Source: a plasmid. From it: a DNA stretch of 64,000 bases. The stretch lies in the NCBI RefSeq assembly GCF_055900595.2, contig NZ_JBVWEU010000002.1. One strand, written 5' to 3'. Each line of letters begins with the position of its first letter. The first letter of the stretch is position 1. The notes under the pieces were generated by a model, which ran no database searches, had not been told where the DNA came from, and saw nothing but the letters and a program-made list of their open reading frames with translations. Below are positions 22,703 to 55,668 of the stretch, piece after piece. The position numbers and the translations under genes are program-made.

Positions 22703-22960
22703 TCAGCCCTGTTTAAAGCCCGGCTTGCCGTTTTTGGCTCGCCATTCCTTCACTTCTTTTACGATACCTTCAGGACTGTCCTCACGGTCATCCCTTGGAT
22801 AATAAATAAGATCAGAACCATCAGGGTGTTCAGCTAATCGACGAAATTCATCCACTAATTTATCATCATCAGCCTCAGTTTCACCTTCAGCCCGGCAGAT
22901 TTTTCTGACGAACTCCAGAAACTCCGCCTCGGTATAGTCAGAAATCGTTTTCTTTTCCAT
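22703..22960 (-). CDS. Nuclease-colicin-type immunity protein (Im family)
   Basis: 85 aa; [12 protein letters not shown] ... [12 protein letters not shown] ... GKPGFKQG closely parallels the DNase-colicin immunity proteins as I recall them; starts one nt after the toxin stop. Confidence 0.75.
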
Positions 22961-23296
22961 TTACTTATTTCCTCTGTGAATTTCAATATGATGCTTGGGT
23001 GTCACTACCCTGAGATTATCGATATCATAAACAGCGCCACCATCCGTAACGCGCTTGATATGGTGCAGTTCGAAACGTTCTCGTTCACCTACACGCTCTG
23101 ATTCAGGAACAAACGAAGATTTACCTTTTGTAACCAGAACCTTATTCTGATTTTTGAACTGCTTCAGTAACTCCGGATCTTTCCCCACTTCCATCCACAA
23201 CGCCTTACGGAACCACGGCAGCCTGGAGGCTGCAAATCGGGGTGTGGCAGAATATGAGCTTTCAGAGTAACCATCCAGAATGAGTTCCCATGTCAC
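22961..23296 (-). CDS. HNH DNase toxin domain (colicin E9/pyocin-type C-terminal nuclease), probably a truncated remnant
   Basis: 111 aa ending ...RERFELHHIKRVTDGGAVYDIDNLRVVTPKHHIEIHRGNK (HNH motif); no translocation or receptor domains upstream. Confidence 0.6.
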   Translation of the reverse strand: MTWELILDGYSESSYSATPRFAASRLPWFRKALWMEVGKDPELLKQFKNQNKVLVTKGKSSFVPESERVGERERFELHHIKRVTDGGAVYDIDNLRVVTPKHHIEIHRGNK

Positions 23297-24109: not shown

Positions 24110-24942
24110 GCTGAACACCCGCAAGGTTCACACTGATGACACACCAGTAAAAGTACTGGCACCGGGCAGGAAGAAGGCGAAAACAGGATATGTCTGGACG
24201 TATGTCCGGGATGACCGGAATGCCGGTTCGCCAGAACCTCCGGCGGTCTGGTTCGCCTACTCACCGGACCATCAGGGTAAACATCCGGAGCAACACCTTC
24301 GTCCCTTCCGGGGTATCCTGCAGGCAGATGCGTTCGCAGGTTACGATCGGCTGTTCAGTGCCGAACGTGAAGGCGGCGCGTTGACGGAAGCAGGATGCTG
24401 GGCTCATGCGCGGCGCAAAATCCACGATGTATATATCAGTACCAAAAGCGCGACGGCGGAAGAAGCACTGAAACTAATCGGCGAACTGTACGCCATTGAG
24501 CACGAAATACGCGGGTTGCCGGTGTCTGAACGCCTGGCGGTCAGGCAAATGCAGAGTAAACCGCTACTGACTTCCTTGTATAAGCTGATGCAGGAGAAAG
24601 AACACACGTTATCGAAAAAATGCCGTCTGAGAGATGCGTTCCGGTATATCAGGAAGCACTGGGTTGCGTTGTGCAACTTCTGTGATGACGGTCTGGCGGA
24701 GGCGGACAATAACACAGCGGAAAGAGCGCTTCGTGCAGTCTGTCTCGGAAAGAAAAATTACGTGTTCTTCGGTAGCGATCACGGCGGCGAGCGTGGTGCA
24801 CTGCTGTACGGGCTGATCGGCACCTGCCGTCTGAACGGTATCGATCCGGAAGCGTATCTGCGCCATATTCTGAGCGTACTGCCGGAATGGCTTTCCAACC
24901 GAGTTGACGAACTCCTGCCATGGAACGTAGTACTCACCAATA
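24110..24942 (+). mobile_element. IS66-family transposase gene fragment (C-terminal half), frameshifted, cut at 3' by the IS629-like copy
   Basis: ...VKVLAPGRKKAKTGYVWTY... then CWAHARRKIHDVY...DNNTAERALR...LPWN. Confidence 0.6.
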
Positions 24943-25687
24943 TGAACCGCCCCGGGTTTCCTGGAGAGTGTTTTATCTGTGAACTCAGGCTGCCAGATCA
25001 TCGTTTCCGATGGAAGCATAATAAGCTTTTTCTGCTTCTGCCGGAGGAGTATGGCCCAGCCTTTCCAGCAATCGTCGATTGTTATACCAGTCCACCCACG
25101 TGAGTGTGGCCAGCTCCACTTCTGTCCGGTTTTTCCAGCTCTTACGGTGTATTACCTCCGCTTTGTAAAGGCCATTGATGCTCTCCGCCATCGCGTTGTC
25201 ATACGAGTCGCCTGTACTCCCTGTTGATGCCAGTAATCCGGCTTCCTTAAGCCGCTGTGTGTAGGCCAGCGATACATACTGAGAACCTTTATCACTGTGA
25301 TGGACTGTGCCGGACGGTCGACGGGCCCATAACGCCTGCTCCAGAGCATCCAGCACGAATGTCGTTTCCATAGACGATGCGGCTCAGTTCACGATTTTCA
25401 CGTTCCAGCTCTTTCAGACGCTGACGTTCAGCGGTGGTGAGCCCGCCATCACCGCCTCCCGTATCCCGCTCATGCTGGCGTACCCAGACACGCAGAGTCT
25501 TCGGTGTACAGCCAATCTTTGGGGCAATGGAACAAATTGCCGCCCACTGTGAGTCATATTCGCCCTGACTTTCCAGAACCATACGAATCGCCCTCTGACG
25601 GACTTCGGGGGAAAAACGAGTATTTTTAGTCATTCTGTTTACCTCTTTCTCAGGGAGTTTAGTCTCCAGGATTCCCGGGGCGGTTCA
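24943..25687 (-). mobile_element. IS629-like element with an internal deletion of roughly 570 bp (orfA 3' end through mid-orfB)
   Basis: Same terminal sequences as the 14012-15321 copy, but the orfA translation diverges after RENREL and the orfB N-terminal half is absent. Confidence 0.75.
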
Positions 25688-26121
25688 GTAATACCGGTGA
25701 TCTCGAGGCCCGTTTGCAGAAGAACGGGAGTGTTCGTTTCCGTGACCGTCGGACGGGAGAGTTTGTCTGTACGGATTATGGTGACAGGGTTGTTTTCCGT
25801 AATCACCATGACCGCAATGCGCTGGCAGATAAACTGGATTTGATTGCACCTGTATTGTTTGAGCGTGATCCCAGAATGGGCTTTGAACCAGAAGGAAACG
25901 ACAAACAATTTAACCAGGTCTTTGCTGAAATGGTTGCCTGGCATAATGTGACAGGCCGTACCGGTCACGAAGACTACAGGATTACACGACCGGATGTGGA
26001 TCATCACCGGGAAGGAAGTGAACGCTACTACCGCGATTATATCGCGGCGAACAGCAACGATGACGCATCACTGCCTCCGCCGGAGCAGGATAAACGCTGG
26101 GAACCGCCATCTCCCGTATGA
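25688..26121 (+). pseudogene. 3' fragment of an unidentified gene, cut at 5' by the IS629-like end
   Basis: Open frame from the IS boundary to a stop at 26121; no family recognised by eye. Confidence 0.25.
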
Positions 26122-26173: not shown

Positions 26174-26306
26174 TTTGACATCCTCCACGCCCTAAGGACG
26201 TGGGTTCCTGCTTCAACGGGCGGCATCCGTCATCCGCCAATACATTGAATAGCAGCAGACACCTGGTTAGGTGGAAAACAGCGCTTTATATCCCCGTTGA
26301 AGGACG
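26174..26306 (+). repeat. Copy A of a ~134-bp direct repeat bracketing cluster 1
   Basis: Near-identical to 34882-35016 (a few mismatches); begins TTGACATCCTCCACGCCCTAAGGACG and ends with hairpin CCCCGT-TGAAGG-ACGGGG. Confidence 0.8.
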
Positions 26307-26579
26307 GGGGTAAGGGGTATTTGTTAAAAATCAGCACTATCCCTGCCAAATAGGATGATTAATATCACAATATATCGACAATTTTTTTAATATTAAACAA
26401 ATAAACATTTGAAAAAAGTTGTTTATGAATGTCATAGATTGATGTAAATCACATTTTTCATAACAACATTTAGACACCTCAAAAATATTCGCTCCTGTAA
26501 AACAACTTTTTTTTCTGTTGTGGGTCACCTTTATATTGAATACTCGTCACCAGTAAACAATATATACTGGAGATTTGTC

Positions 26580-27248
26580 ATGACGATATCCATTTTTCAG
26601 GCTCAACCCTTTGAATTACCCTTTGATCCGTGCACAACGGCACTGATCATGATAGACATGCAACGTGATTTTGTCGAAGCAGGAGGGTTTGGAGAAGCAT
26701 TGGGTAATGATGTTTCACTGGTTCGCACGGCTATCGCACCATGTAAAGAAGTTCTGGCAGCCGCACGTCAAAAAGGAATTATGGTTATTCATACCCGTGA
26801 AGGCCATCGTGAAGACTTAAGCGACTGCCCATCAGCCAAACTGACGCGCGGCGGAAAAACCTTTATTGGTGAACCAGGACCGATGGGACGCATTCTGGTC
26901 AGGGGTGAAGCAGGTCATGACATCATTCCTGAACTGTATCCGGTGACAGGCGAACCTGTGATTGATAAACCCGGTAAAGGCGCTTTTTATCAAACCGACT
27001 TACATCTGATTTTGCAAAAGCGTGGTATCAAGACACTTATTGTTTGTGGCGTGACTACCGAAGTTTGCGTAACCACCACCGTGCGTGAAGCAAATGACCG
27101 TGGCTATGAATGCATCATACCGGAAGATTGCGTTGGCTCCTATTTCCCGGAATTCCAGAAATACGCCCTTGAGATGATCAAAGCACAAGGTGCCATTTTC
27201 GGTTGGGTTACTGATTCCAAAGCCATTATTGCAGGTCTGGAAGGCTAA
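26580..27248 (+). CDS. Isochorismatase-family cysteine hydrolase (amidase-type)
   Basis: Start taken at ATG 26580 (GGAG about 7 nt upstream); MIDMQRDF (Asp), DKPGKGAF (Lys) and LIVCGVTTEVCV (Cys) match the family catalytic triad pattern. Confidence 0.7.
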   Translation: MTISIFQAQPFELPFDPCTTALIMIDMQRDFVEAGGFGEALGNDVSLVRTAIAPCKEVLAAARQKGIMVIHTREGHREDLSDCPSAKLTRGGKTFIGEPGPMGRILVRGEAGHDIIPELYPVTGEPVIDKPGKGAFYQTDLHLILQKRGIKTLIVCGVTTEVCVTTTVREANDRGYECIIPEDCVGSYFPEFQKYALEMIKAQGAIFGWVTDSKAIIAGLEG

Positions 27249-27253
27249 CGCCG

Positions 27254-28114
27254 ATGGTACAGGTTACGCTTTGTGCATCGTCGTTGGGATATCTTTTCCC
27301 GCAGAATGAAACGCAAGATTTACGTCTACATAGCGCTTTTAAACATGCGGTAAATCTGTATTCAGACGCGGGAACATTCATCACTCTGTTGTGTGCGCAA
27401 ACGTATCTGAATCTCCCTGATGCTGCCAGAGTCTGGCTACCTGAATGTTGGGACTGGCGAAGAGAGATTGCCCATTCAGATCCCATTCAATTAACCCCAG
27501 GCTTACTGCGGACACCTCGATTTTGTGTGGCGCTCGATAACGCAACGCTCTGGCAGTCGCCATTTGTGGGGGGAATGCTGACTCTTGAGGCATTGCCTTT
27601 GGTTTTCCAGCACTACCCCACGATAGCATCGCAACGGCTTTTATTTTGTCTGGAGCATAACGTTCAAAGCACATTGCACCTGCCGGATAGTCTCACGCAC
27701 CAGGGATTAGATATTATGGAACATCCAGATGCGCTGGAACGCCAGGTACCCCAACTGATCGGCTTTGGTAAAGGCTTAACGCCCGATGGAGATGACTATT
27801 TGCTGGGCTATCTGGCAGCCCTCTGGTTATGGCAACTCCCTGCACCACTTGCCAATCATCAATACAGGTTGCAGAAGGCAATTGAACAACATGCACACAA
27901 CACCACGGATATAAGTCGTCATTATCTGCAACGTGCGCTTCAGGGACATTTTTCAGAACCGATTTGCCGGTTACTCGCACAACTGGTTGGGAGCGCATCG
28001 GCAATGACAATCGCATCCTGTACAGAACAGATCATGCAATTTGGCGCAACATCAGGAGTAAATTGCCTTGCAGGAATGCTGCATGGATTTCGAACCCTGA
28101 ACACCATGAATTGA
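27254..28114 (+). CDS. DUF2877-family protein (YlbF/YahE-like)
   Basis: 286 aa; same position relative to the FdrA-like gene as in cluster 2; motif GLTPDGDDYLLGYL shared with the 43104 paralog (GLTPSSDDYLVGL). Confidence 0.55.
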   Translation: MVQVTLCASSLGYLFPQNETQDLRLHSAFKHAVNLYSDAGTFITLLCAQTYLNLPDAARVWLPECWDWRREIAHSDPIQLTPGLLRTPRFCVALDNATLWQSPFVGGMLTLEALPLVFQHYPTIASQRLLFCLEHNVQSTLHLPDSLTHQGLDIMEHPDALERQVPQLIGFGKGLTPDGDDYLLGYLAALWLWQLPAPLANHQYRLQKAIEQHAHNTTDISRHYLQRALQGHFSEPICRLLAQLVGSASAMTIASCTEQIMQFGATSGVNCLAGMLHGFRTLNTMN

Positions 28115-28208
28115 TTTCAACCTTTTCTCCCGTAGCCCGTTTATGGGGCTACACGGGGATGCTTTGCCCGAATTTTGCTATCGGGCGGAATGGAACAGGC
28201 GTAACAGC

Positions 28209-29768
28209 ATGAAAGTTAAATATAAAGTTTTCAGTAATCTTTATCAGGACTCAGTTTCTCTGATGCAGATTTCCGCGCAAATCAGCAAGTTGCCCGGTAT
28301 TCAACAGGCCTCGGTCGTCATGGGAACACCCAATAATCTCGAGCAATTGCGCGATGCGGGTCTGGGTAACGAAATCAACGCCAGTCCCAATGATTTAGTG
28401 ATTGCAGTCATGGGTGAAGAAGATATTTGCAATGAAGCACTGCTACTGGCCCAGCAACGTCTGACCAGCAAACCCGATGATGAAACGGATTGTGGCATTA
28501 AATCACCGGAAAAGGTCAGCCTGGAAATGGCACTGGAAGCTGAACCCGAAGCCAACCTGGCACTCATTTCTGTACCGGGAGACTACGCCGCCGCCGAAGC
28601 AATTAAAGCGTTAAACCTCGGAATGAACGTGATGATGTTCAGCGATAACGTCAGTATCGGGCAGGAAAAATACATCAAAACGCTTGCCCGAGAACGTCAG
28701 CGCATCGTAATGGGACCTGACTGTGGAACCGCCATTGTTAACGGCATTCCGTTAGGCTTCGCTAATGTGGTGAAACGCGGAGCAATTGGTGTTATTGGCG
28801 CGTCAGGCACCGGGCTACAGGAAGTGACTTGCCGAATCGACCAGCTCGGAGCGGGTATTTCTCAGGCGTTGGGAACAGGCGGACATGATCTCAGTGAAGA
28901 GATTGGTGGAATATCAATGCTCTTTGCTTTAGATGCGCTGGCACAAGACGATGAAACTCACGTGATTGTGCTTATTTCAAAACCGCCTTCACCGATCGTT
29001 GCCCGGACTATTCTGGAGCGCGCCGAGGCTTGTGGAAAACCCGTGGTGGTGAATTTCCTCGGGGCGAATCCGCATGATCTGGCACGTCCCAATATCACTG
29101 CCGCCACCACACTTGCCAGCGCCGCCGACATCGCTGTGGCGTTACTGAATGATCAGCCACTTCCGGCTGTCGAGAACGAGGTTTCCTGCGACGATCTCAC
29201 AATGTTACAAAACGCCTGCCAAAGTCTGCCAGTCCATCGCCAGGCGATACGCGGTGTTTTCGCCGGAGGAACCTTCTGTTACGAAGCTCAGCTTATCTGC
29301 CAACAAAAGGGATTCCATGCCGCCTCCAATACGCCAGTTGCGGGTAATCGTGCTCTGGCAAATATCTGGCAAAGTGAAGATCATACACTGATTGATATGG
29401 GGGACGATGATTTCACCCGTGGCAAACCGCATCCAATGATCGACCCGACTCTGCGCAATCAACGTCTGCTCAACGAACTCAACGACTCACATACTGCCGT
29501 TGTGTTATTCGACCTTGTACTTGGTTATGGCACCTCCGCTACGCCTGTCAGCGAATTACTGGACCAACTTTCACACATCGACATGAATAATGCACCGTTG
29601 CTGATTGCCCACGTTTGCGGAACAGAAGCTGATCCGCAAATACGCAGTCAGCAGATAAGCTCACTACAAAATGCAGGCGTCATCATTGCCAACAGCAATG
29701 CACAGGCGGCGCTATGGGCCAGCACCGTTGCACAGACTCAGTTGCAGAAAAAGGAGCTAAATGCATGA
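28209..29768 (+). CDS. FdrA-like protein (acyl-CoA-synthetase/succinyl-CoA-synthetase-alpha fold)
   Basis: Start at ATG 28209 (MKVKYKVFSNLYQDSVSLMQIS...); clear paralog of ORF 43912-45459 (e.g. MGPDCGTAIVNG, GASGTGLQE, TRGKPHPMIDPT). Confidence 0.7.
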   Translation: MKVKYKVFSNLYQDSVSLMQISAQISKLPGIQQASVVMGTPNNLEQLRDAGLGNEINASPNDLVIAVMGEEDICNEALLLAQQRLTSKPDDETDCGIKSPEKVSLEMALEAEPEANLALISVPGDYAAAEAIKALNLGMNVMMFSDNVSIGQEKYIKTLARERQRIVMGPDCGTAIVNGIPLGFANVVKRGAIGVIGASGTGLQEVTCRIDQLGAGISQALGTGGHDLSEEIGGISMLFALDALAQDDETHVIVLISKPPSPIVARTILERAEACGKPVVVNFLGANPHDLARPNITAATTLASAADIAVALLNDQPLPAVENEVSCDDLTMLQNACQSLPVHRQAIRGVFAGGTFCYEAQLICQQKGFHAASNTPVAGNRALANIWQSEDHTLIDMGDDDFTRGKPHPMIDPTLRNQRLLNELNDSHTAVVLFDLVLGYGTSATPVSELLDQLSHIDMNNAPLLIAHVCGTEADPQIRSQQISSLQNAGVIIANSNAQAALWASTVAQTQLQKKELNA

Positions 29769-31189
29769 ATACCTTATTTAATCAGCCTTTGAAGGTCGTG
29801 AACGCGGGGCTACACAGTTTTGCTGACAATATTCAACATGCAGGAGGGCATGCTATATCCCTCAACTGGCAGCCGCCAGCACAAGGTGATATTGACACCG
29901 GTTTGGTTCTGGCGTCATTACTACGCCATCCACTGGTAGAAAGTGCCAACCAAATCGCCATGACACGTTATCTCGAAGCACAGCCCGTGTTGGTGGATGT
30001 CATGCTCGCTAAAGAAGCCATCCCCGAAATGGCTGAACAAAAACGCATTTTACACTCTGGTCCACCGATTGCCTGGGAAGATATGTGTGGTCCGGTAAAA
30101 GGGGCGATTATTGGTGCCATGCTGTACGAAGGCTGGGCTACAAGCCAGAAAGACGCAGAAAACCAGATAAACGCAGGCGAAATCGACCTTGCTCCTTGTC
30201 ATCATTATCACGCGGTTGGACCAATGGCAGGCATTATCAGCCCGTCGATGCCATTATGGGTGGTGGAAAACAAAACCAACGGCCATCGTACTTTTAGCAA
30301 TTTCAATGAGGGTCTGGGTAAGGTTCTCCGTTTTGGTGCCAATAACGATGAAGTTCTCAATCGTCTGGCCTGGATGCGTGATGAACTGGCGCCGGCCATG
30401 AAAGCAGCAATCGCACAACACGGCGAGCTGGAACTCAAGCCATTAATGGCGCAGGCGCTGCATATGGGGGATGAAGTTCATAACCGCAATGCTGCCGCTA
30501 CCGGTTTGCTGATTAAGCGCCTGCTCCCGGCATTGCTGGCCTGCTCTCTTCCACAGGAACATATCCAGCGCGTCGTGGCATTTATCACAGGTAACGATCA
30601 CTTCTTCCTCAATTTGTCGATGGCTGCCTGTAAAGCAATGATGGATGCCGCCGCCAATGTACCGTTCAGTTCAATGGTTACGGTGATGGCGCGTAACGGG
30701 GTGAATTTTGGTATTCGGCTTTCCGGTACTGGCGATCGCTGGTTTCAGGCTCCTGCCAATGCAGTTGAAGGTCTGTTCTTCCCCGGATTTGGCGTTGACG
30801 ACGCCGCTTCTGACCTGGGTGATAGCGCAATTACTGAAACCGCAGGTGTGGGTGGCTTCGCGATGGCGTCATCTCCGGCGATTGTTAAATTTGTGGGAGG
30901 CACCCCTGCCGATGCCACCAATAACAGCCGTCGGATGCAGGCAATCACCCTCGGCGGTAACCCCGCATTTACACTTCCAGCCCTCAATTTTGCCCCCACC
31001 GCAGCAGGTATTGATGCGTGTAAAGTGACCGATCGTGGCATTTTACCGGTCATCAATACGGGTATCGCCCACAAACAAGCGGGAGTCGGACAAATTGGTG
31101 CCGGGATCACCACTGCACCGATGGCCTGTTTTGTCGCTGCTGTACGTGAACTGGCGGAGATCGTCGCAAAGGAGAACCATCATGGTTAA
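29765..31189 (+). CDS. DUF1116-family protein (YlbE/YahG-like)
   Basis: Start ATG overlaps the upstream stop; paralog of 45459-46877 (LFNQPL..VN.G, HSGPPI.WE.MCG, GDSAITET.GVGGFAMA). Confidence 0.65.
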   Translation: MNTLFNQPLKVVNAGLHSFADNIQHAGGHAISLNWQPPAQGDIDTGLVLASLLRHPLVESANQIAMTRYLEAQPVLVDVMLAKEAIPEMAEQKRILHSGPPIAWEDMCGPVKGAIIGAMLYEGWATSQKDAENQINAGEIDLAPCHHYHAVGPMAGIISPSMPLWVVENKTNGHRTFSNFNEGLGKVLRFGANNDEVLNRLAWMRDELAPAMKAAIAQHGELELKPLMAQALHMGDEVHNRNAAATGLLIKRLLPALLACSLPQEHIQRVVAFITGNDHFFLNLSMAACKAMMDAAANVPFSSMVTVMARNGVNFGIRLSGTGDRWFQAPANAVEGLFFPGFGVDDAASDLGDSAITETAGVGGFAMASSPAIVKFVGGTPADATNNSRRMQAITLGGNPAFTLPALNFAPTAAGIDACKVTDRGILPVINTGIAHKQAGVGQIGAGITTAPMACFVAAVRELAEIVAKENHHG

Positions 31190-32138
31190 GCCACTGGCTG
31201 TCGTCGCGGTTGGCGGCAATGCGCTCATTCAGGACGATAAACGCAATAGTATTCCCGATCAATATGTTGCAGTAATGGAAAGCGTGCAGCATATCGTTGA
31301 TATGGTTGAAGCCGGATGGGAGCTGGTGCTAACCCATGGTAATGGCCCGCAGGTAGGCTTTATTCTGCGCCGCTCTGAACTTGCCAGTAACGAAGTTTCT
31401 CCGGTTCCTCTGGATTACGCCGTGGGTGATACCCAAGGCGCCATTGGATACATGTTCCAGAAAGCGCTGCATAACGAATTGGCTCGCCGTGGCATAAACA
31501 AACCGGTAATTGCCCTGGTGACACAAACGCGAGTCAGCCCATATGACGATGCTTTCGCCAGCCCCAGTAAACCGATTGGCGCGTTTCTTGATGAAGAAAC
31601 AGCACAACAACGCCAACAACAACTCGGCTGGACGCTGATGGAGGACGCCGGGCGTGGTTGGCGGCGTACAGTTCCCTCTCCTGCGCCACTGGAAATTATT
31701 GAGCACCACACCATCGCTCACCTTGTGCGCCAGGGATATCTGGTTATAGCCTGCGGCGGCGGCGGTATACCTGTGGTGCGAGACGGGCAACAACTGAAAG
31801 GTGTGGAAGCCGTGATCGATAAAGACCTGGCCTCCGCATTGCTCGCCAGTCAGTTAGGCGCTGATCTGCTGGTGATCCCCACCGGTGTAGAAAAAGTGGC
31901 GATTCACTTTGGTACACCACAACAACAATGGCTCGACGCTATCAGCGTCTACGAAGCTCAAACGCTGTTGCAGGAAGGTCAGTTTGGTGTCGGCAGTATG
32001 CAACCCAAAGTGGAAGCCATTATTGATTTCATCAATGCCAGCCAGCAACAAGGCAAACAGGCCAGCGGACTGATTACTTCACCGCAAACCATAAAAGCAG
32101 CCCTGGCACATCAGAGCGGAACATGGATAACCCTTTAA
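31182..32138 (+). CDS. Carbamate kinase
   Basis: Start at ATG 31182 (overlaps upstream gene by 8 nt); AVGGNAL ... THGNGPQVG ... ACGGGGIPVV motifs. Confidence 0.8.
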   Translation: MVKPLAVVAVGGNALIQDDKRNSIPDQYVAVMESVQHIVDMVEAGWELVLTHGNGPQVGFILRRSELASNEVSPVPLDYAVGDTQGAIGYMFQKALHNELARRGINKPVIALVTQTRVSPYDDAFASPSKPIGAFLDEETAQQRQQQLGWTLMEDAGRGWRRTVPSPAPLEIIEHHTIAHLVRQGYLVIACGGGGIPVVRDGQQLKGVEAVIDKDLASALLASQLGADLLVIPTGVEKVAIHFGTPQQQWLDAISVYEAQTLLQEGQFGVGSMQPKVEAIIDFINASQQQGKQASGLITSPQTIKAALAHQSGTWITL

Positions 32139-32154
32139 TTCTCTGGAGAACACA

Positions 32155-32544
32155 ATGACTACAACACTTTTAGCCGTTAACGGAACGCTGATGCGCGGTC
32201 TGGAACTCAACCCAAATATGCAAAAAGCTGGCGGTATTTTTGTCCGTGAAGACCGAACTGACGCCCATTACCGGTTATGGAGTATTAATGATCGTCATCC
32301 CGGAATGATCCGCGTGAATGAAGGAGGAGCACACGTAGACGTAGAAATCTGGCAACTGCCTCTGGCCAGTTTTGCCGAACTGTTAATGAACGAACCCGAA
32401 GGCCTGACCATTGGAAAAATCAAACTTGCCGATGGTAGCGAAGTACTGGGCGTACTGGCAGAAAGCTGGCTGACTGAAGGCCAGAAGGAGATTACAGCAC
32501 TGGGGGGCTGGCGCAAATACACCGGGAATTTTCACACGATGTAA
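32155..32544 (+). CDS. Small gamma-glutamyl-cyclotransferase-like (AIG2/allophanate-hydrolase C-domain-like) protein
   Basis: 129 aa; weak by-eye resemblance only. Confidence 0.4.
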   Translation: MTTTLLAVNGTLMRGLELNPNMQKAGGIFVREDRTDAHYRLWSINDRHPGMIRVNEGGAHVDVEIWQLPLASFAELLMNEPEGLTIGKIKLADGSEVLGVLAESWLTEGQKEITALGGWRKYTGNFHTM

Positions 32545-32569
32545 CGCGCATTTATAAAGGAAACATATT

Positions 32570-33790
32570 ATGCGTAAAGAAGATAATATGAATACGGCAT
32601 CAGGATTGCGTATTACCATGATTTTGCTGGGTATTGCCGTCACACCTGTGCTGTTGTCATCCTCAAGCCTCGGCAATCAACTTTCCAGTGGTAGTTTAAT
32701 TAGCGTCGTACTATTAGGCGGCGTCATTCTGACCTTACTTTCAGCCATCACCATTAGTGTGGGAGAAAAAGCCCGCCTGCCAACATACGGTATTGTGAAA
32801 TATTCATTTGGCGAAAAAGGGGCCATCGCCATTAATATTTTGATGGCTATAAGTCTGTTCGGCTGGATTGCCGTTACCGCTAATATGTTTGGTCATTCGG
32901 TGCATGACTTACTGGCGCAGAATGGGATTGAAGCGCCACTGGCACTGTTAGTGGCAGCTGGTTGTGTCATTTTTGTCGCCTCTACGGCCTTTGGTTTTTC
33001 CATTCTGGGCAAAGTTGCCCAGGTCGCCGTGCCGGTTATCGCACTGGTGCTGTGTTATATACTCTATGTGGCAACCCATACCGAAGTATCAGCGCCAGCA
33101 GCGATAGCGGAGATGAGTACAGGTGTCGCCGTTTCCACCGTTGTTGGCACTATTATTGTGCTGGTTGCTACACTTCCCGACTTCGGTAGTTTTGTACATA
33201 ACCGAAAACATGCTCTGATTGCCGCAGGTATGACGTTTCTGGTTGCCTACCCTCTGCTATACTGGGCGGGTGCAACGCCGAGTGCCATTAGCGGCCAGGG
33301 CTCTTTACTGAATGCTATGGCAGTATTCGGTGCGGTTATGCCTGCAGCACTGTTGCTGATATTCGCCTGCGTCACCGGTAATGCGGGCAATATGTTCCAG
33401 GGGACGTTGGTAGTTTCCACACTGCTTAGCCGCTTTCCCAAATGGCAGATTACCGTTGCGCTGGGTATCCTTTCCGCCATCGTAGGCAGTATGGATATTA
33501 TGGCGTGGTTTATTCCGTTTCTGCTGTTCCTGGGTATCGCGACTCCCCCAGTTGCCGGAATTTATATCGCTGACTTTTTCCTTTATCGCCGTAATGGCTA
33601 TCAAGAGTCGGTGTTAACTCAGGAGTCACAGGTTAAAGTACTGACATTCGCTGCATGGATCACAGGCACAGCGGTTGGCTTTATGACCGTAAAAGGCTTA
33701 TTCACCCTGACGACGATCCCTTCAGTTGACTCCATTCTGGTGGCATGTATCGCGTATGCGATTCTCAGTCGGGCAAGTCAACACCGCTAA
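32570..33790 (+). CDS. NCS1-family permease (cytosine/purine/hydantoin-type)
   Basis: 406 aa, about 12 hydrophobic segments; resemblance to CodB-type permeases. Confidence 0.6.
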   Translation: MRKEDNMNTASGLRITMILLGIAVTPVLLSSSSLGNQLSSGSLISVVLLGGVILTLLSAITISVGEKARLPTYGIVKYSFGEKGAIAINILMAISLFGWIAVTANMFGHSVHDLLAQNGIEAPLALLVAAGCVIFVASTAFGFSILGKVAQVAVPVIALVLCYILYVATHTEVSAPAAIAEMSTGVAVSTVVGTIIVLVATLPDFGSFVHNRKHALIAAGMTFLVAYPLLYWAGATPSAISGQGSLLNAMAVFGAVMPAALLLIFACVTGNAGNMFQGTLVVSTLLSRFPKWQITVALGILSAIVGSMDIMAWFIPFLLFLGIATPPVAGIYIADFFLYRRNGYQESVLTQESQVKVLTFAAWITGTAVGFMTVKGLFTLTTIPSVDSILVACIAYAILSRASQHR

Positions 33791-33867
33791 TTCCTGGGTA
33801 TACTCAGGCAATGATTACGGCTGAATCTGGAGAGATTCAGCCACTTTACCACTGACCAGGGAGCCTT

Positions 33868-34758
33868 ATGTTCATCTCAGACGAAACGATTCGAATTATT
33901 CATCTGGTCGCCAGACACCAGAACATCACCACCGCAGCCGAACAGTTAAATAAAGTCCCTTCTACTATCAGTTACACCCTGAAGAAAGCGGAAGAAACCC
34001 TGGGCGTTGAACTGTTCATTCGTAAGGGACGATATATTGAATTATCTCCGGCGGGGAGTTACTTCATCGAACATAGCAAAAATATTCTCCGCGATCTGGA
34101 TGCATTAAAGCGCAACACAGTGCTGATTCACGATGGTATTGAGCGTGAACTGACAATTGCGGTGAACAATATTATACCTGGTGATTTTCTGGTGTCATTT
34201 ATTCAAGATTTTGAACGGCAATTCACATCAACAACACTGACGGTAGATATTGAAGTATACAACGGCTGCTGGGATGCGCTGTACAGTAAACGTGCTGATC
34301 TGGTCTACGGTGCTCCTCATGCAGTACCAAGCAGTGAAGGCATCATTAGCGAACCGGTCGGACAAATAGAATGGGATTTTGTCGTCAGCCCACTTCATCC
34401 ACTGGCAGTGAAGCGGAATCCATTAGAAAATAGTGAATTGCGTCATTATCCTGCGGTTTGTATCCGGGATACCTCCGTTAACTTCCCCCCAATGCAAGCC
34501 TGGTTGTTGGAAGGACAAAAACCTATTTTTGTTCCTGACTTCGCCATGGCAATCAGCTTAATAGAACAAAACGTCGGTATTGGTTATATTCCACATCATC
34601 TGGCATTGCCGTTATTGAACAGAGGTAAATTGCTTAAAAAGCCAATGCGCGAACATAAACACGCCACCAAGTTATTTCTTGCCGCTCGTTCCGATGGTAT
34701 AGGAAAAGCCTGTCTGTGGTGCATGTCGTATTTAAGAAATAAGCAATTCATGGCGTAA
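33868..34758 (+). CDS. LysR-family transcriptional regulator
   Basis: 296 aa; N-terminal HTH (TAAEQLNKVPSTISYTLKKAEETLGVELFIRKGR). Confidence 0.75.
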   Translation: MFISDETIRIIHLVARHQNITTAAEQLNKVPSTISYTLKKAEETLGVELFIRKGRYIELSPAGSYFIEHSKNILRDLDALKRNTVLIHDGIERELTIAVNNIIPGDFLVSFIQDFERQFTSTTLTVDIEVYNGCWDALYSKRADLVYGAPHAVPSSEGIISEPVGQIEWDFVVSPLHPLAVKRNPLENSELRHYPAVCIRDTSVNFPPMQAWLLEGQKPIFVPDFAMAISLIEQNVGIGYIPHHLALPLLNRGKLLKKPMREHKHATKLFLAARSDGIGKACLWCMSYLRNKQFMA

Positions 34759-34881
34759 TACCATCAATACAGTGATATTGCCAGGCTCTTCCAGGGTTAT
34801 ACTGAATGCAATGATCCGAAAGGATGATGAATGGATTGATTCATACCACAAGTTTTCATTTTGACATCCTCCACGCCCTAA

Positions 34882-35016
34882 GGACGAGGGGTCCTGCTTC
34901 AACGGGCGGCATCCGTCATCCGCCAATACATTGAATAGCAGCAGACACCTGGTTAGGTGGAAAACAGCGCCTTATATCCCCGCTGAAGGACGGGGTTTTA
35001 CGGTGCACGGATAAAA
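34882..35016 (+). repeat. Copy B of the ~134-bp direct repeat bracketing cluster 1
   Basis: Near-identical to 26174-26306; ends CCCCG-CTGAAGG-ACGGGG followed by TTTTA (terminator-like). Confidence 0.8.
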
Positions 35017-35191: not shown

Positions 35192-35581
35192 ATGATAAAA
35201 CAAAAGGTATTTTTCTCAGGTACTGTACTAGCTATTTTTTTATCTCTCAGCAACGTATCTTTGGCTTCCGGCCTGGATAAAAACATGCAGTCTCTTGCCA
35301 AAAGTATGAGTATTCTACAATCTTCCAATGATAAATCATCACTATTAAATGCTCTTGAAATGATGGATAAATCTGTAGATTCTTCTATGAATATTATTCC
35401 TGAAAAGATAGATGTTAATGATAAAGTTTCTGTAGATAATTATAAGGAAGAGTTAAAAAAACTACAACATGAAATCAATATTGCAAAAAAGAAAGTTGAG
35501 GACGGGAATATAGAATCATTACGTGAGTCTCTGGATAAAATGAACGATATAAAACTTGAAGGTCACCGAAAATTCAGATGA
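35192..35581 (+). CDS. Secreted cytochrome b562-family protein
   Basis: ATG 35192 then signal peptide MIKQKVFFSGTVLAIFLSLSNVSLA; mature N-terminus ...DKNMQSL and C-terminus ...LEGHRKFR parallel the Met/His heme-ligand positions of cytochrome b562 as I recall it; AT-rich. Confidence 0.5.
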   Translation: MIKQKVFFSGTVLAIFLSLSNVSLASGLDKNMQSLAKSMSILQSSNDKSSLLNALEMMDKSVDSSMNIIPEKIDVNDKVSVDNYKEELKKLQHEINIAKKKVEDGNIESLRESLDKMNDIKLEGHRKFR

Positions 35582-37746: not shown

Positions 37747-37969
37747 GAAACCTGGATTTTTCCGCGACCAGTAACGGCGTGGGTTGTCACATAAACGACC
37801 GATTGAGTGACTGTCACTGAAACAACGATTTCTGCATCAGATTTCGTCACATAACCCGTCACCTATTCAACGTCATGCAAATCTGTCAATTACTGGCTTT
37901 GGTTACGGAATTTTCTAGGTTTTCGGCTTAGAACCCCAAATAGTCTTAACGTGGTTTATTTTCCGAATT

Positions 37970-38248
37970 TCAAGCGCCCCCCTGGATGAGCGTGATGATT
38001 ACTGGCGGACCTTTGACGTTCCAGCAAATTCCCCTGTTCCACATAGGTTTCCAGATATGACCGGTTATTTTCACGTTCGGTGTACGTGTTACAGCTGCAT
38101 TATCAATATCATCAGGGATAAAATTGTAAGATCGTGGAAAATGTTTATTCATAGCCCGGATGATGGCTGTCTGTGCATCCTTTGTTCGGGCGCGGTGTTT
38201 CCATTCACGCCAGCCATCCACCTCAGAAATAATAACAGTAATCATCAA
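37970..38248 (-). CDS. Hypothetical protein
   Basis: 92-aa ORF between the Tn3-IR pair and the FinO-domain gene; no recognisable motif. Confidence 0.2.
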   Translation of the reverse strand: MMITVIISEVDGWREWKHRARTKDAQTAIIRAMNKHFPRSYNFIPDDIDNAAVTRTPNVKITGHIWKPMWNRGICWNVKGPPVIITLIQGGA

Positions 38249-39349: not shown

Positions 39350-39631
39350 GGTAATGACTCCAACTTATTGATAGTGTTTTATGTTCAGATAATGCCCGAT
39401 GACTTTGTCATGCAGCTCCACCGATTTTGAGAACGACAGCGACTTCCGTCCCAGCCGTGCCAGGTGCTGCCTCAGGTTCAGGTTATGCCGCTCAATTCGC
39501 TGCGTATATCGCTTGCTGATTACGTGCAGCTTTCCCTTCAGGCGGGATTCATACAGCGGCCAGCCATCCGTCATCCATATCACCACGTCAAAGGGTGACA
39601 GCAGGCTCATAAGACGCCCCAGCGTCGCCAC
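39350..39631 (-). mobile_element. IS1 fragment (right-end about 280 bp, inverted), truncated internally
   Basis: Starts GGTAATGACTCCAACTTATTGATAGTG; encodes the InsB C-terminus on the minus strand. Confidence 0.8.
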
Positions 39632-45459: not shown

Positions 45460-46877
45460 TGAGCCAGACACTGTTTAATCAGCCGCTGAACGTTATTAAT
45501 GTCGGTATCGAAATGTTCAGCGATGACATGAAAAAGCAGAATGTACCGGTAACCCAACTTGACTGGACACCGCCAGGCCAAGGAAACATACAAGTGGTAA
45601 CGGCACTGGACGACATTGCCGCTTCACCACTGGCAGACAAAATTGCAGCTGCTAATCAGCTGGCGCTGGAACGCATTATCCAGTCGCATCCTGTGCTAAT
45701 TGGCTATGATCAGGCGATCAACGTCGTGCCGGGTATGACCCGTAACACTATCCTTCACGCCGGGCCGCCAATCCACTGGGAAAAAATGTGCGGCGCAATG
45801 AAGGGCGCAGTAACCGGGGCTCTGGTATTTGAAGGACTGGCGAAAGATCTGGATGATGCCGCCGAACTAGCTGCTTCAGGTGAAATCATCTTCTCTCCGT
45901 GCCACGAACATGACTGTGTCGGCTCAATGGCGGGTGTCACGTCTGCATCGATGTTTATGCACATCGTCGAGAACAAAACCTATGGAAACCGCGCATATAC
46001 CAATATGAGCGAGCAGATGGCAAAGATCCTGCGTATGGGCGCTAACGACCAGAGCGTTATAGAGCGTCTTAACTGGATGCGAGATGTACTGGGACCTATG
46101 TTGCGCGATGCTATGAAGCTGGCGGGCGAAATCGATCTGCACTTGATGTTAGCGCAGGCGCTGCATATGGGCGATGAGTGCCATAACCGCAACAACGCCG
46201 GGACGGCGCTGCTGATTCAGACGCTGACGCCGTGGATTATTCAGACTGGCTACCCTGTTGAGCAGCAGCGTGAGGTGTTCGAGTTTGTCCTCAGTAGTGA
46301 TTACTTCTCAGGACCAACATGGATGGCAATGTGTAAAGCCGCAATGGACGCTGCGCACGGCATTGAATACAGCACCGTGGTGACAACGATGGCACGCAAT
46401 GGTGTTGAGTTCGGTCTTCGTATTAGCGGTTTGCCGGGCCAGTGGTTTACCGGTCCGGCGCAGCAGGTGATTGGGCCGATGTTTGCGGGCTATAAGCTAG
46501 AGGATTCCGGACGTGATATCGGTGATAGTGCAATTACCGAAACCTACGGCGTTGGCGGTTTCGCTATGGCGACGGCACCAGCTATTGTGTCACTGGTGGG
46601 CGGAACAGTTGAGGAAGCTATTGATTTCTCACGTAAAATGAGAGAAATCACTCTCGGAGAAAACCCCAACGTCACCATTCCCCTGCTTGGTTTTATGGGC
46701 GTACCGACCGCTATCGATATTACACGTGTAGGCAGTACAGGCATTCTGCCGGTAATTAACACAGCCATTGCGCACAAAGACGCAGGGATCGGCATGATCG
46801 GCGCAGGAATTGTTCACCCGCCGTTCACTTGTTTTGAAAAGGCGATCCTCAACTGGCGTGACCACTACTGCCAATAA
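45459..46877 (+). CDS. DUF1116-family protein (YahG/YlbE-like)
   Basis: 472 aa; start overlaps upstream stop; paralog of 29765-31189. Confidence 0.65.
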   Translation: MSQTLFNQPLNVINVGIEMFSDDMKKQNVPVTQLDWTPPGQGNIQVVTALDDIAASPLADKIAAANQLALERIIQSHPVLIGYDQAINVVPGMTRNTILHAGPPIHWEKMCGAMKGAVTGALVFEGLAKDLDDAAELAASGEIIFSPCHEHDCVGSMAGVTSASMFMHIVENKTYGNRAYTNMSEQMAKILRMGANDQSVIERLNWMRDVLGPMLRDAMKLAGEIDLHLMLAQALHMGDECHNRNNAGTALLIQTLTPWIIQTGYPVEQQREVFEFVLSSDYFSGPTWMAMCKAAMDAAHGIEYSTVVTTMARNGVEFGLRISGLPGQWFTGPAQQVIGPMFAGYKLEDSGRDIGDSAITETYGVGGFAMATAPAIVSLVGGTVEEAIDFSRKMREITLGENPNVTIPLLGFMGVPTAIDITRVGSTGILPVINTAIAHKDAGIGMIGAGIVHPPFTCFEKAILNWRDHYCQ

Positions 46878-53992: not shown

Positions 53993-54357
53993 CTAAATCG
54001 CGCCAGCGCTGGCTGTTTTACGCGTATGACAGTCTCCGGAAGACGGTTGTTGCGCACGTATTCGGTGAACGCACTATGGCGACGCTGGGGCGTCTTATGA
54101 GCCTGCTGTCACCCTTTGACGTGGTGATATGGATGACGGATGGCTGGCCGCTGTATGAATCCCGCCTGAAGGGAAAGCTGCACGTAATCAGCAAGCGATA
54201 TACGCAGCGAATTGAGCGGCATAACCTGAATCTGAGGCAGCACCTGGCACGGCTGGGACGGAAGTCGCTGTCGTTTTCAAAATCGGTGGAGCTGCATGAC
54301 AAAGTCATCGGGCATTATCTGAACATAAAACACTATCAATAAGTTGGAGTCATTACC

Positions 54358-55427: not shown

Positions 55428-55668
55428 TTCTGATGCCGCGTGAGCGGCATGGAAGGCGGTATAATGTAGCTACATATGGCACAAGAGTAAAACCGCCGAA
55501 GCCCGGCGTAAGCCGGTACTGATTGATAGATTTCACCTTACCCATCCCCGTCCTGCTAAGCCATGCCCGCTGTCAGCCATGAGAGAGCTTATGTGCGCGG
55601 TCGGAGTGGTCCCGACGAGGGTTTACCCGAAGTCGGGGCGTATCTCCGCGTTAGCGGGCCGTTAGGGC
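55428..55668 (+). other. Second, shorter copy of the structured IS110-3'-flank-like segment (no transposase gene attached)
   Basis: Aligns with 17036-17160 and 17330-17425 (e.g. shared GTGCGCGGTCGGAGTGGTCCCGACGAGGGTTTACCCGAAGTCGGG); lacks the about 165-bp middle segment. Confidence 0.4.

Follow-up and report, generated by a model that had tools for sequence, protein, structure and literature searches.

Miniature gene-less derivatives of IS609 flank an operon of chromosomal origin on a ColV-type virulence plasmid

Direct repeats derived from insertion sequences (ISs) that bracket acquired modules, and in which the modules are gained or lost by homologous recombination, are a well-known theme; examples are the resistance and virulence modules of IncF plasmids bracketed by IS26 or IS1, of which there are also forms that lack the module and have a single hybrid copy. 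A different type of mobile end is known from IS608, which has neither terminal inverted repeats nor target duplication; on the left it is cleaved at TTAC, a tetranucleotide outside the element and 19 nt 5′ of the left hairpin, and on the right at TCAA, which belongs to the element and is found 10 nt 3′ of the right hairpin (PMC3201880). Gene-less derivatives of the IS200/IS605 family, termed palindrome-associated transposable elements (PATEs), have been described in archaea, cyanobacteria and Geobacillus; they are short, consist of a left end (LE) and a right end (RE) with hairpins, have no coding capacity and can be mobilised only in trans (PMC10055086). Here we analysed a 64,000-nt stretch (the window) of an IncF ColV-type virulence plasmid (RefSeq assembly GCF_055900595.2, contig NZ_JBVWEU010000002.1), in which a pair of direct repeats brackets an eight-gene operon. 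Judged by their homology, both repeats are miniature, gene-less derivatives, or relics, of IS609, an element of the IS200/IS605 family. We consider it likely that these relics act as portable homology, and that homologous recombination within them brought in the operon and can remove it again. The mini element is a new, previously unannotated, non-autonomous derivative of a known insertion sequence. The arrangement resembles the IS26- and IS1-bracketed modules in that IS-derived direct repeats enclose an acquired module, and differs from them in that the repeats are 135–150-bp non-coding relics of a single-strand transposon, not full ISs with a DDE transposase, and in that target duplications are missing.

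A repeat search and alignment within the window showed that the direct repeat comprises 136 nt, at 26174–26309 (copy A) and 34860–34995 (copy B), with 97% identity and four mismatches (26201, 26205, 26285 and 26297 in copy A coordinates). The first-pass annotation, made from the letters of the window alone, had reported such a repeat around this gene cluster; the repeat itself and the position given for copy A held, and copy B, which had been placed at 34882–35016, turned out to begin ~22 nt further left. Even when up to three mismatches were allowed, the 19-mer that starts the repeat was found in the window at these two sites only, with 0.01 sites expected by chance. Each copy ends in the GC hairpin CCCCG(T/C)TGAAGGACGGGG and TTTT directly follows copy B, both of which had been correctly described before. 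The IS-derived part of copy B continues for 15 nt past the shared 136 nt, up to 35010. Plasmids of avian pathogenic E. coli, pAPEC-O2-ColV (NC_007675) among them, match the surrounding 11.5 kb at 99.9–100% identity.

A sensitive blastn search of the repeat against 5,426 complete E. coli genomes revealed that its parts match the two ends of IS609-type elements, next to which IS200/IS605 transposase and InsQ/TnpB are annotated. In K-12 and EC958, these elements carry tnpA, coding for the IS200/IS605 family transposase, and the divergent insQ, coding for the RNA-guided endonuclease TnpB; the K-12 tnpA translation shows an HUH motif and the YIEQQ tyrosine region. When aligned with K-12 IS609 by blastn, the repeat resolved into three collinear segments, corresponding to IS609 positions 1–39, 69–93 and 1646–1750, at 88–100% identity (Table 1). 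The 5′ 38 nt of the repeat are 92% identical to the terminus just past the insQ/TnpB stop codon, and its last 85–105 nt are 88–90% identical to the tnpA 3′ end together with the opposite terminus, the match of copy B reaching IS609 position 1750 at 35012 of the window. Relative to IS609, the mini element has lost ~1.6 kb with both genes, 2 nt from the loop of the LE hairpin, and another 42 nt beside the RE hairpin, where the deletion lies between two imperfect direct repeats, GTGGATCCCTGC and GTGGGTTCCTGC. No other IS609 sequence, no tnpA and no InsQ-like coding sequence was found in the 64-kb window. The mini element thus has in common with the ydcM–insQ copy of IS609 in K-12 both termini and both subterminal hairpins (88–100% identity), the active-strand terminus TGTCAA and the flanking TTAT; it differs in the loss of both genes, in the additional loss of the LE tip from copy A, and in showing no sign of mobility. 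In one plasmid, copy A carries a 14-nt deletion, GCAGACACCTGGTT (L012, 2322–2440), which shows that the relic is free to decay.

A smaller, rearranged IS609 relic was noticed in the repA–hok interval of the IncI2 mcr-1 plasmid pMCR-M17059 (L099, 2204–2245), where TTGACATCCTCCACGCCCTGAAGGAC is fused to GGGGATATAAGGCGC, that is, the TnpB-side terminus of IS609 to an inverted inner part of the other end. The carriers of this fusion are ~60-kb plasmids, IncI2 in the one examined.

Folding as single-stranded DNA predicted a hairpin near each end of the mini element on the − strand, CCCCG..CGGGG at the LE and CCACG..CGTGG at the RE. The fold of copy A had a z value of −3.8, and 0 of 200 shuffled sequences folded as well. 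In IS609, the loops of the LE and RE hairpins are near-identical (CCCTGAAGGA). The mini element carries no terminal inverted repeats; imperfect palindromes lie at subterminal positions at both ends and on the same strand. The first-pass annotation had rightly recorded this absence, which is no argument against a transposon since it is typical of the IS200/IS605 family. On the − strand, the order in copy B is TTAT / CCGTGCACCGTAAAA / hairpin CCCCGTCC..GGGG ... hairpin / AGGATGTCAA /, so that 15 nt separate the LE hairpin from the flanking TTAT, and 10 nt with TCAA at their end come after the RE hairpin. The same asymmetric geometry is found in IS608, with 15 nt and 10 nt in copy B corresponding to 19 nt and 10 nt in IS608, and TTAT corresponding to TTAC; no flank duplication was seen at the mini element. 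Copy A, by comparison with copy B, ends at the foot of the LE hairpin (26309), where it is joined to DNA homologous to the 3′ end of ysgA.

Four independent IS609 insertions, adjoining ydcL, yhgE, a DUF1869 gene and a TetR gene, and copy B have common sequence through ...CACCGGATAA and diverge beyond it. TTAT next to the LE is kept in the IS609 copies of K-12, EC958, M18 and ES1, whose flanks otherwise differ. This common sequence at five insertion sites, together with the analogy to TTAC of IS608 (PMC3201880), suggests that TTAT is the target motif of IS609. A literature search returned no target-adjacent motif (TAM) of IS609, and no unoccupied site that would confirm TTAT as the target sequence was found.

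The GC hairpin at the end of each copy and the T-run after copy B had led the first-pass annotation to consider att-like recombination sites or a repeated terminator or small RNA (sRNA) element, and the TTGACA at the start of the element may be counted in favour as well. Gene-less IS200/IS605 derivatives can encode guide RNAs (PMC10055086), and this capacity of some of them could be added in favour of an sRNA gene regulating the cluster. Our data make either function highly improbable, as every feature is accounted for by the IS609 ends. Regarding att sites for a site-specific recombinase, no recombinase is encoded in or beside the segment, which is flanked by a nikB relic and cybC; the annotation also confirmed the earlier remark that the bracketed segment contains no integrase. 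Ordinary homologous recombination over 135 bp is the best reading of the exchange between the repeats. Regarding transcription signals, the element has no Rfam match at the gathering score (only noise at E<10), TTGACA is not followed by an acceptable −10 box, the promoter scan does not flag the element, the hairpin fails the terminator scan and the 4-T run is below the criteria of that scan. A leading-region single-strand promoter (Frpo/ssi-like), suggested by the TTGACA start, had also been considered and was dropped after the homology to the IS609 ends was found. Finally, only ~65 nt of the TnpB-side end are left and these are interrupted by the 42-nt deletion, which makes a working guide RNA from the mini element unlikely.

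The bracketed segment spans 8.55 kb and contains eight + strand genes, as seen from the RefSeq annotation of an identical plasmid and from Pfam matches. In ~1,500 of the 5,426 E. coli genomes, the chromosomal interval from ysgA to a murR/rpiR-like gene contains these eight genes in the same order. At the DNA level, the plasmid operon is ~80% identical to the chromosomal one at its 5′ end, and the two LysR genes are 94% identical. Homology to the chromosome begins at ~26316, inside the last ysgA codons and a few bases past the end of copy A, and fades at ~34785; from ~34786 to copy B, no E. coli chromosomal counterpart was found. Because the homology starts in the last ysgA codons and the orthologs lie beside chromosomal ysgA, the plasmid cluster is a captured piece of chromosome that came from a close relative as donor. 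The comparison indicates that it is a diverged ortholog of the E. coli operon, cut inside ysgA and after the LysR gene. Homologous operons are widespread in Proteobacteria, and among the species representatives the best match to the first gene was that of E. coli, with 95% amino-acid identity.

The window also contains what appears to be a second, paralogous operon. A 69-nt stretch of the DUF1116/AllG gene (30449–30517) is 77% identical to 46152–46220 in its presumed paralog in the second cluster, and two diverged copies of the AllFGH/carbamate kinase pathway are thus carried by the same plasmid. A 281-nt inverted repeat (39350–39630 and 54077–54357; 99% complementary, arms 14.4 kb apart) appears to bracket this second operon, which in related plasmids was seen to comprise LysR, an ankyrin protein, AllH, FdrA, YlbE, xanthine permease and carbamate kinase, and which may be an IS-bounded module.

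Plasmids with one copy of the mini element and no cluster were detected as well, as the first-pass annotation had proposed to look for: four in PLSDB, two further E. coli plasmids (E15 and E16) and one metagenome contig (L104). The two PLSDB records that were opened, pTB-nb2 and pE32-3, are IncK2/Z plasmids; E15 and E16 were called single-copy from a lone 150-nt place at 98.7% identity, with flanks not read. Each single copy that was read is flanked on its left as copy A is and on its right as copy B is, and has a full LE tip. This form is the exact product or substrate of a crossover within the repeat, and the initial idea that recombination between the repeats can bring in or remove a cassette was right in outline, though not in the att or RNA nature proposed for the repeats.

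The single-nucleotide polymorphisms (SNPs) of the repeat were then polarised with the IS609 copies as outgroup, which gave t,t,c,c as the ancestral states at the four variable sites. The single copies have t,t,c,c. Copy A has t,t,t,t in 19 of the 19 sequences read, so that its derived bases, at 26285 and 26297, are in its right, cluster-proximal part. Copy B has a,t,c,c or a,g,c,c; the derived a (34887) was present in all 17 copies read and lies in the left, again cluster-proximal, part. The g of copy B (34891) is polymorphic, being missing in 7 of these 17 copies, and it therefore arose later, after the structure had formed. This polarity is what one would expect if an incoming mini copy with a,t,t,t and no LE tip had recombined with a resident t,t,c,c copy in a single crossover, and as such it is suggestive of this event, although it is not proof. 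The crossover can be placed only to the 80-nt interval 26205–26285, which is compatible with homologous exchange and in which no core is definable.

The differences between the copies could also be ordinary later mutations, if the mini element had been duplicated in place, or had inserted twice independently, and the operon had arrived between the two copies by illegitimate recombination. The late origin of the g at 34891 agrees with this scenario, and the junction of copy A with ysgA′ is an illegitimate join under any model. We nevertheless find it unlikely, since the derived bases would have to fall cluster-proximal in each copy by chance, 2% divergence would be needed in 135 bp versus the 99.9–100% identity of the surrounding 11.5 kb among plasmids, and an independent insertion by TnpA cannot yield a copy without LE tip.

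These data show what the repeats are and how they are built, that the cargo came from a chromosome, that a single-copy form exists and how the SNPs are arranged. We infer the following route of homologous recombination, including its direction (gain or loss) and the way in which the DNA came in (as a circle or by a double crossover). A complete 150-bp mini element would have resided on the plasmid between the nikB relic and cybC. The incoming DNA would have been an 8.55-kb piece of chromosome, composed of the ysgA 3′ end and the eight-gene, ureide/carbamate-type operon, with a slightly diverged mini copy that lacked the LE tip. Homologous recombination inside the ~135-bp shared sequence would join this piece to the resident copy and would place one chimeric mini copy on either side of the insert. 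The reverse crossover would delete the operon and leave one hybrid copy, and the reciprocal circle junction would read LysR-downstream / a..t,t hybrid / GTAAGGGG-ysgA′.

Several points weigh against this route. No donor was found: the mini-specific internal junction had no exact match in one genome each of 100,044 species, and none of the 80 fetched chromosomal homolog loci carried an IS609 end. Neither the 5,426 E. coli genomes nor the JGI metagenomes contain the junction LysR-downstream / mini / ysgA′ that a reciprocal circle or a tandem would have, and an unoccupied nikB′/cybC site was looked for and not found. The model leaves the loss of the LE tip from the incoming copy and the fusion of this copy to ysgA unexplained, and RecA dependence is assumed. 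The SNP argument has three fixed differences only, with a naive chance estimate of ~1 in 8. In addition, t,t,c,c is restored by a reverse crossover in the central 80 nt; the plasmids with a single copy may therefore be either revertants or ancestors, and the data fit both.

As for its distribution, the mini element was found in 86 PLSDB records (168 places), all of them conjugative plasmids of E. coli or Klebsiella, in 146 records from 138 complete E. coli genomes (269 places, 21 chromosomal) and in 5 JGI metagenome contigs. The copies found (168 + 269 + 6) share the same four junctions, and no others occurred among all fetched copies: nikB′/mini, mini/ysgA′-cluster, LysR-downstream/mini and mini/cybC. 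The exceptions are secondary events, namely an IS1 that cuts the left flank of copy B in chromosomal islands, an IS421-cut plasmid segment in one chromosome, and the three-copy plasmid p1337a (H235, the one read of two such plasmids, the other being H280), which is a 14-kb IS-associated tandem duplication with no new insertion site. Other non-standard contexts are truncations by IS1, IS421 or IS2, or scaffolding artefacts.

Two of these contexts were considered in their own right and rejected. In p135-1, the last 53 nt of copy A adjoin a chromosomal porin region, an arrangement that was examined as a donor state; it is rare (4 records, 3 genomes) and was read as a secondary rearrangement. The whole unit between pepQ and fadB on a chromosome (GCA_003028795.1, CP028309.1; L009, 1757–1866 and 12011–12100) has 100-N gaps on both sides and is a scaffolding artefact, the segment probably being a mis-scaffolded plasmid contig.

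No mini element was found at unrelated loci in PLSDB, the 5,426 E. coli genomes, the JGI metagenomes or the 100,044 species representatives. As all copies lie in the same junction contexts or in rearrangements of these, the mini element shows no sign of transposition and is not a dispersed repeat; the common intergenic element that the first-pass annotation had named as the observation against its proposal is not what we see, every copy being in one locus context. Like PATEs, the mini element is short, has LE and RE hairpins and no coding capacity, and could be mobilised only in trans; unlike PATEs, which form multiple dispersed copies, it is confined to one locus and its rearranged descendants, and its guide-RNA region is largely deleted. 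With two copies per plasmid at one locus, we filed it as an IS609 relic and not as an active PATE family.

These data also bear on the two copies acting together as a composite transposon of IS200/IS605 type, in which IS609 TnpA, supplied in trans, would move the whole 8.8-kb unit as single-stranded DNA via its outer ends (LE of copy B and RE of copy A), and single-copy plasmids would be later deletions. The outer LE with its TTAT and the outer RE with its consensus hairpin and TCAA terminus are intact, whereas the inner LE of copy A lacks the cleavage tip and the inner RE of copy B has the stem-breaking change, so that the crippled inner ends would favour movement of the whole unit; moreover, tnpA is annotated without a pseudogene flag in some E. 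coli, and WP_000604932.1 of strain M18 is an example of an intact IS609 TnpA. Such movement would generate the donor joint GGGCGGGTAT/ATAAAAGG and the RE–LE circle junction TGTCAA/CCGTGCAC. However, the unit 26175–35010 was found at no second target site, nikB′ ... cybC being the sole flank pair, no empty donor joint was found, the window contains no tnpA, and the complete single mini element at the identical site is more simply explained by homologous recombination. Known IS200/IS605 elements are far smaller than the 8.8-kb cargo, and overall we regard this composite as quite unlikely. Still less probable is that 26175–35010 is a functional cargo-carrying composite, mobilised as an 8.8-kb single strand by chromosomal IS609 TnpA, possibly with an RE-side RNA that guides chromosomal InsQ/TnpB for retention; if this very doubtful reading were true, peel-and-paste transposition would, for the first time in enterobacteria, be seen to move a natural cargo the size of an operon. 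Homologous recombination within the relics remains our preferred explanation.

Table 1. Coordinates of the mini-IS609 copies, their IS609-matching segments, the bracketed operon and the flanking genes in the window
Feature	Position	Strand	Basis or remark
nikB 3′ relic (IncI1-type relaxase gene), left flank of copy A	25714–26121	+	annotated "relaxase NikB, incomplete"
Copy A, mini-IS609 without LE tip, 135 bp	26175–26309	−	blastn to K-12 IS609, alignments, fold
Copy A RE hairpin	26185–26203	−	followed by AGGATGTCAA as terminus
Copy A LE hairpin	26292–26309	−	15-nt LE tip and cleavage site missing
IS609 1–39, terminus beyond insQ stop codon	copy A 26175–26212; copy B 34861–34898		
IS609 69–93, 25 nt of insQ 3′ coding end	copy A 26200–26224; copy B 34888–34910		100% identical in copy A
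IS609 1646–1750, tnpA 3′ end and other terminus	copy A 26225–26309 (to IS609 1732); copy B 34911–35012		
Junction DNA: last ~10–20 nt of ysgA homolog and native operon promoter region	26310–26579	+	homology to chromosomal ysgA–cysteine hydrolase interval
Captured eight-gene operon	26580–34758	+	RefSeq annotation, Pfam, orthologous chromosomal cluster
Cysteine hydrolase, isochorismatase family	26580–27248	+	
AllH/DUF2877	27254–28114	+	
FdrA/AllF	28209–29768	+	
DUF1116/AllG	29765–31189	+	
Carbamate kinase	31182–32138	+	
AH_C-like protein, 129 aa	32155–32544	+	
Cytosine/purine permease	32567–33790	+	
LysR regulator	33868–34758	+	
~100 nt from LysR stop to copy B	34759–34860	+	travels with copy B
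Copy B, complete mini-IS609, 150 bp	34861–35010	−	blastn to IS609; shared with four independent IS609 insertions up to ...GGATAA
Copy B RE hairpin	34871–34889	−	weakened by stem-breaking t>a at 34887
Copy B LE hairpin	34978–34995	−	
Copy B LE tip	34996–35010	−	
TTAT (ATAA on +), abutting copy B LE	35011–35014	−	putative target / left cleavage tetranucleotide (TAM)
cybC (cytochrome b562), right flank of copy B	35192–35581	+	annotation

The nikB relic is 97% identical to nikB of ~1,450 IncI1 plasmids, with the homology extending up to ~26114, and cybC adjoins the mini element wherever the right flank is intact. An Rfam scan of the window identified CopA and sok. The nikB relic is cut upstream of copy A by a partial IS3-family copy (24941–25677; repeats D1/D2, 95–98%), the second one in the window. 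The first IS3-family element, at 13960–15311, has an ALIL frameshift pseudoknot at 14870–14986 and − strand open reading frames (ORFs) at 14054–15267. A match to the Rfam family STnc490, an Hfq-binding sRNA family that we take to be art200 of IS200, lies at 13960–14033. Between the nikB relic and eit-like ABC/MFS iron transporter genes (18585–22625), a colicin remnant at 22703–23296 comprises a bacteriocin immunity gene and a gene with an HNH endonuclease motif. Three copies of a 45–49-nt inverted-repeat sequence, GGGGTC...GTTAAG, were found at 17425–17473, 18228–18276 and 37938–37982; they resemble the terminal repeats of the Tn3 family, and two of them flank a 196-aa recombinase ORF (17640–18230). 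The direct repeats D4/D5 (17045–17427 and 55447–55658) share 136 nt at 85% and 106 nt at 96% identity and lie 38 kb apart.

Taken together, these results describe a chromosomal nitrogen-catabolism operon that was recruited to a plasmid, where two 135-bp relics of a single-strand transposon make it excisable. Homologous recombination within the relics would explain why ColV/ColBM-type virulence plasmids from avian and human extraintestinal E. coli are polymorphic for the presence or absence of the operon. It is ordinary plasmid biology for which no new mechanism is needed, and it indicates that decayed ends of IS200/IS605 elements can serve as portable homology in plasmid evolution; annotation pipelines leave such ends unmarked ("none" under every hit).

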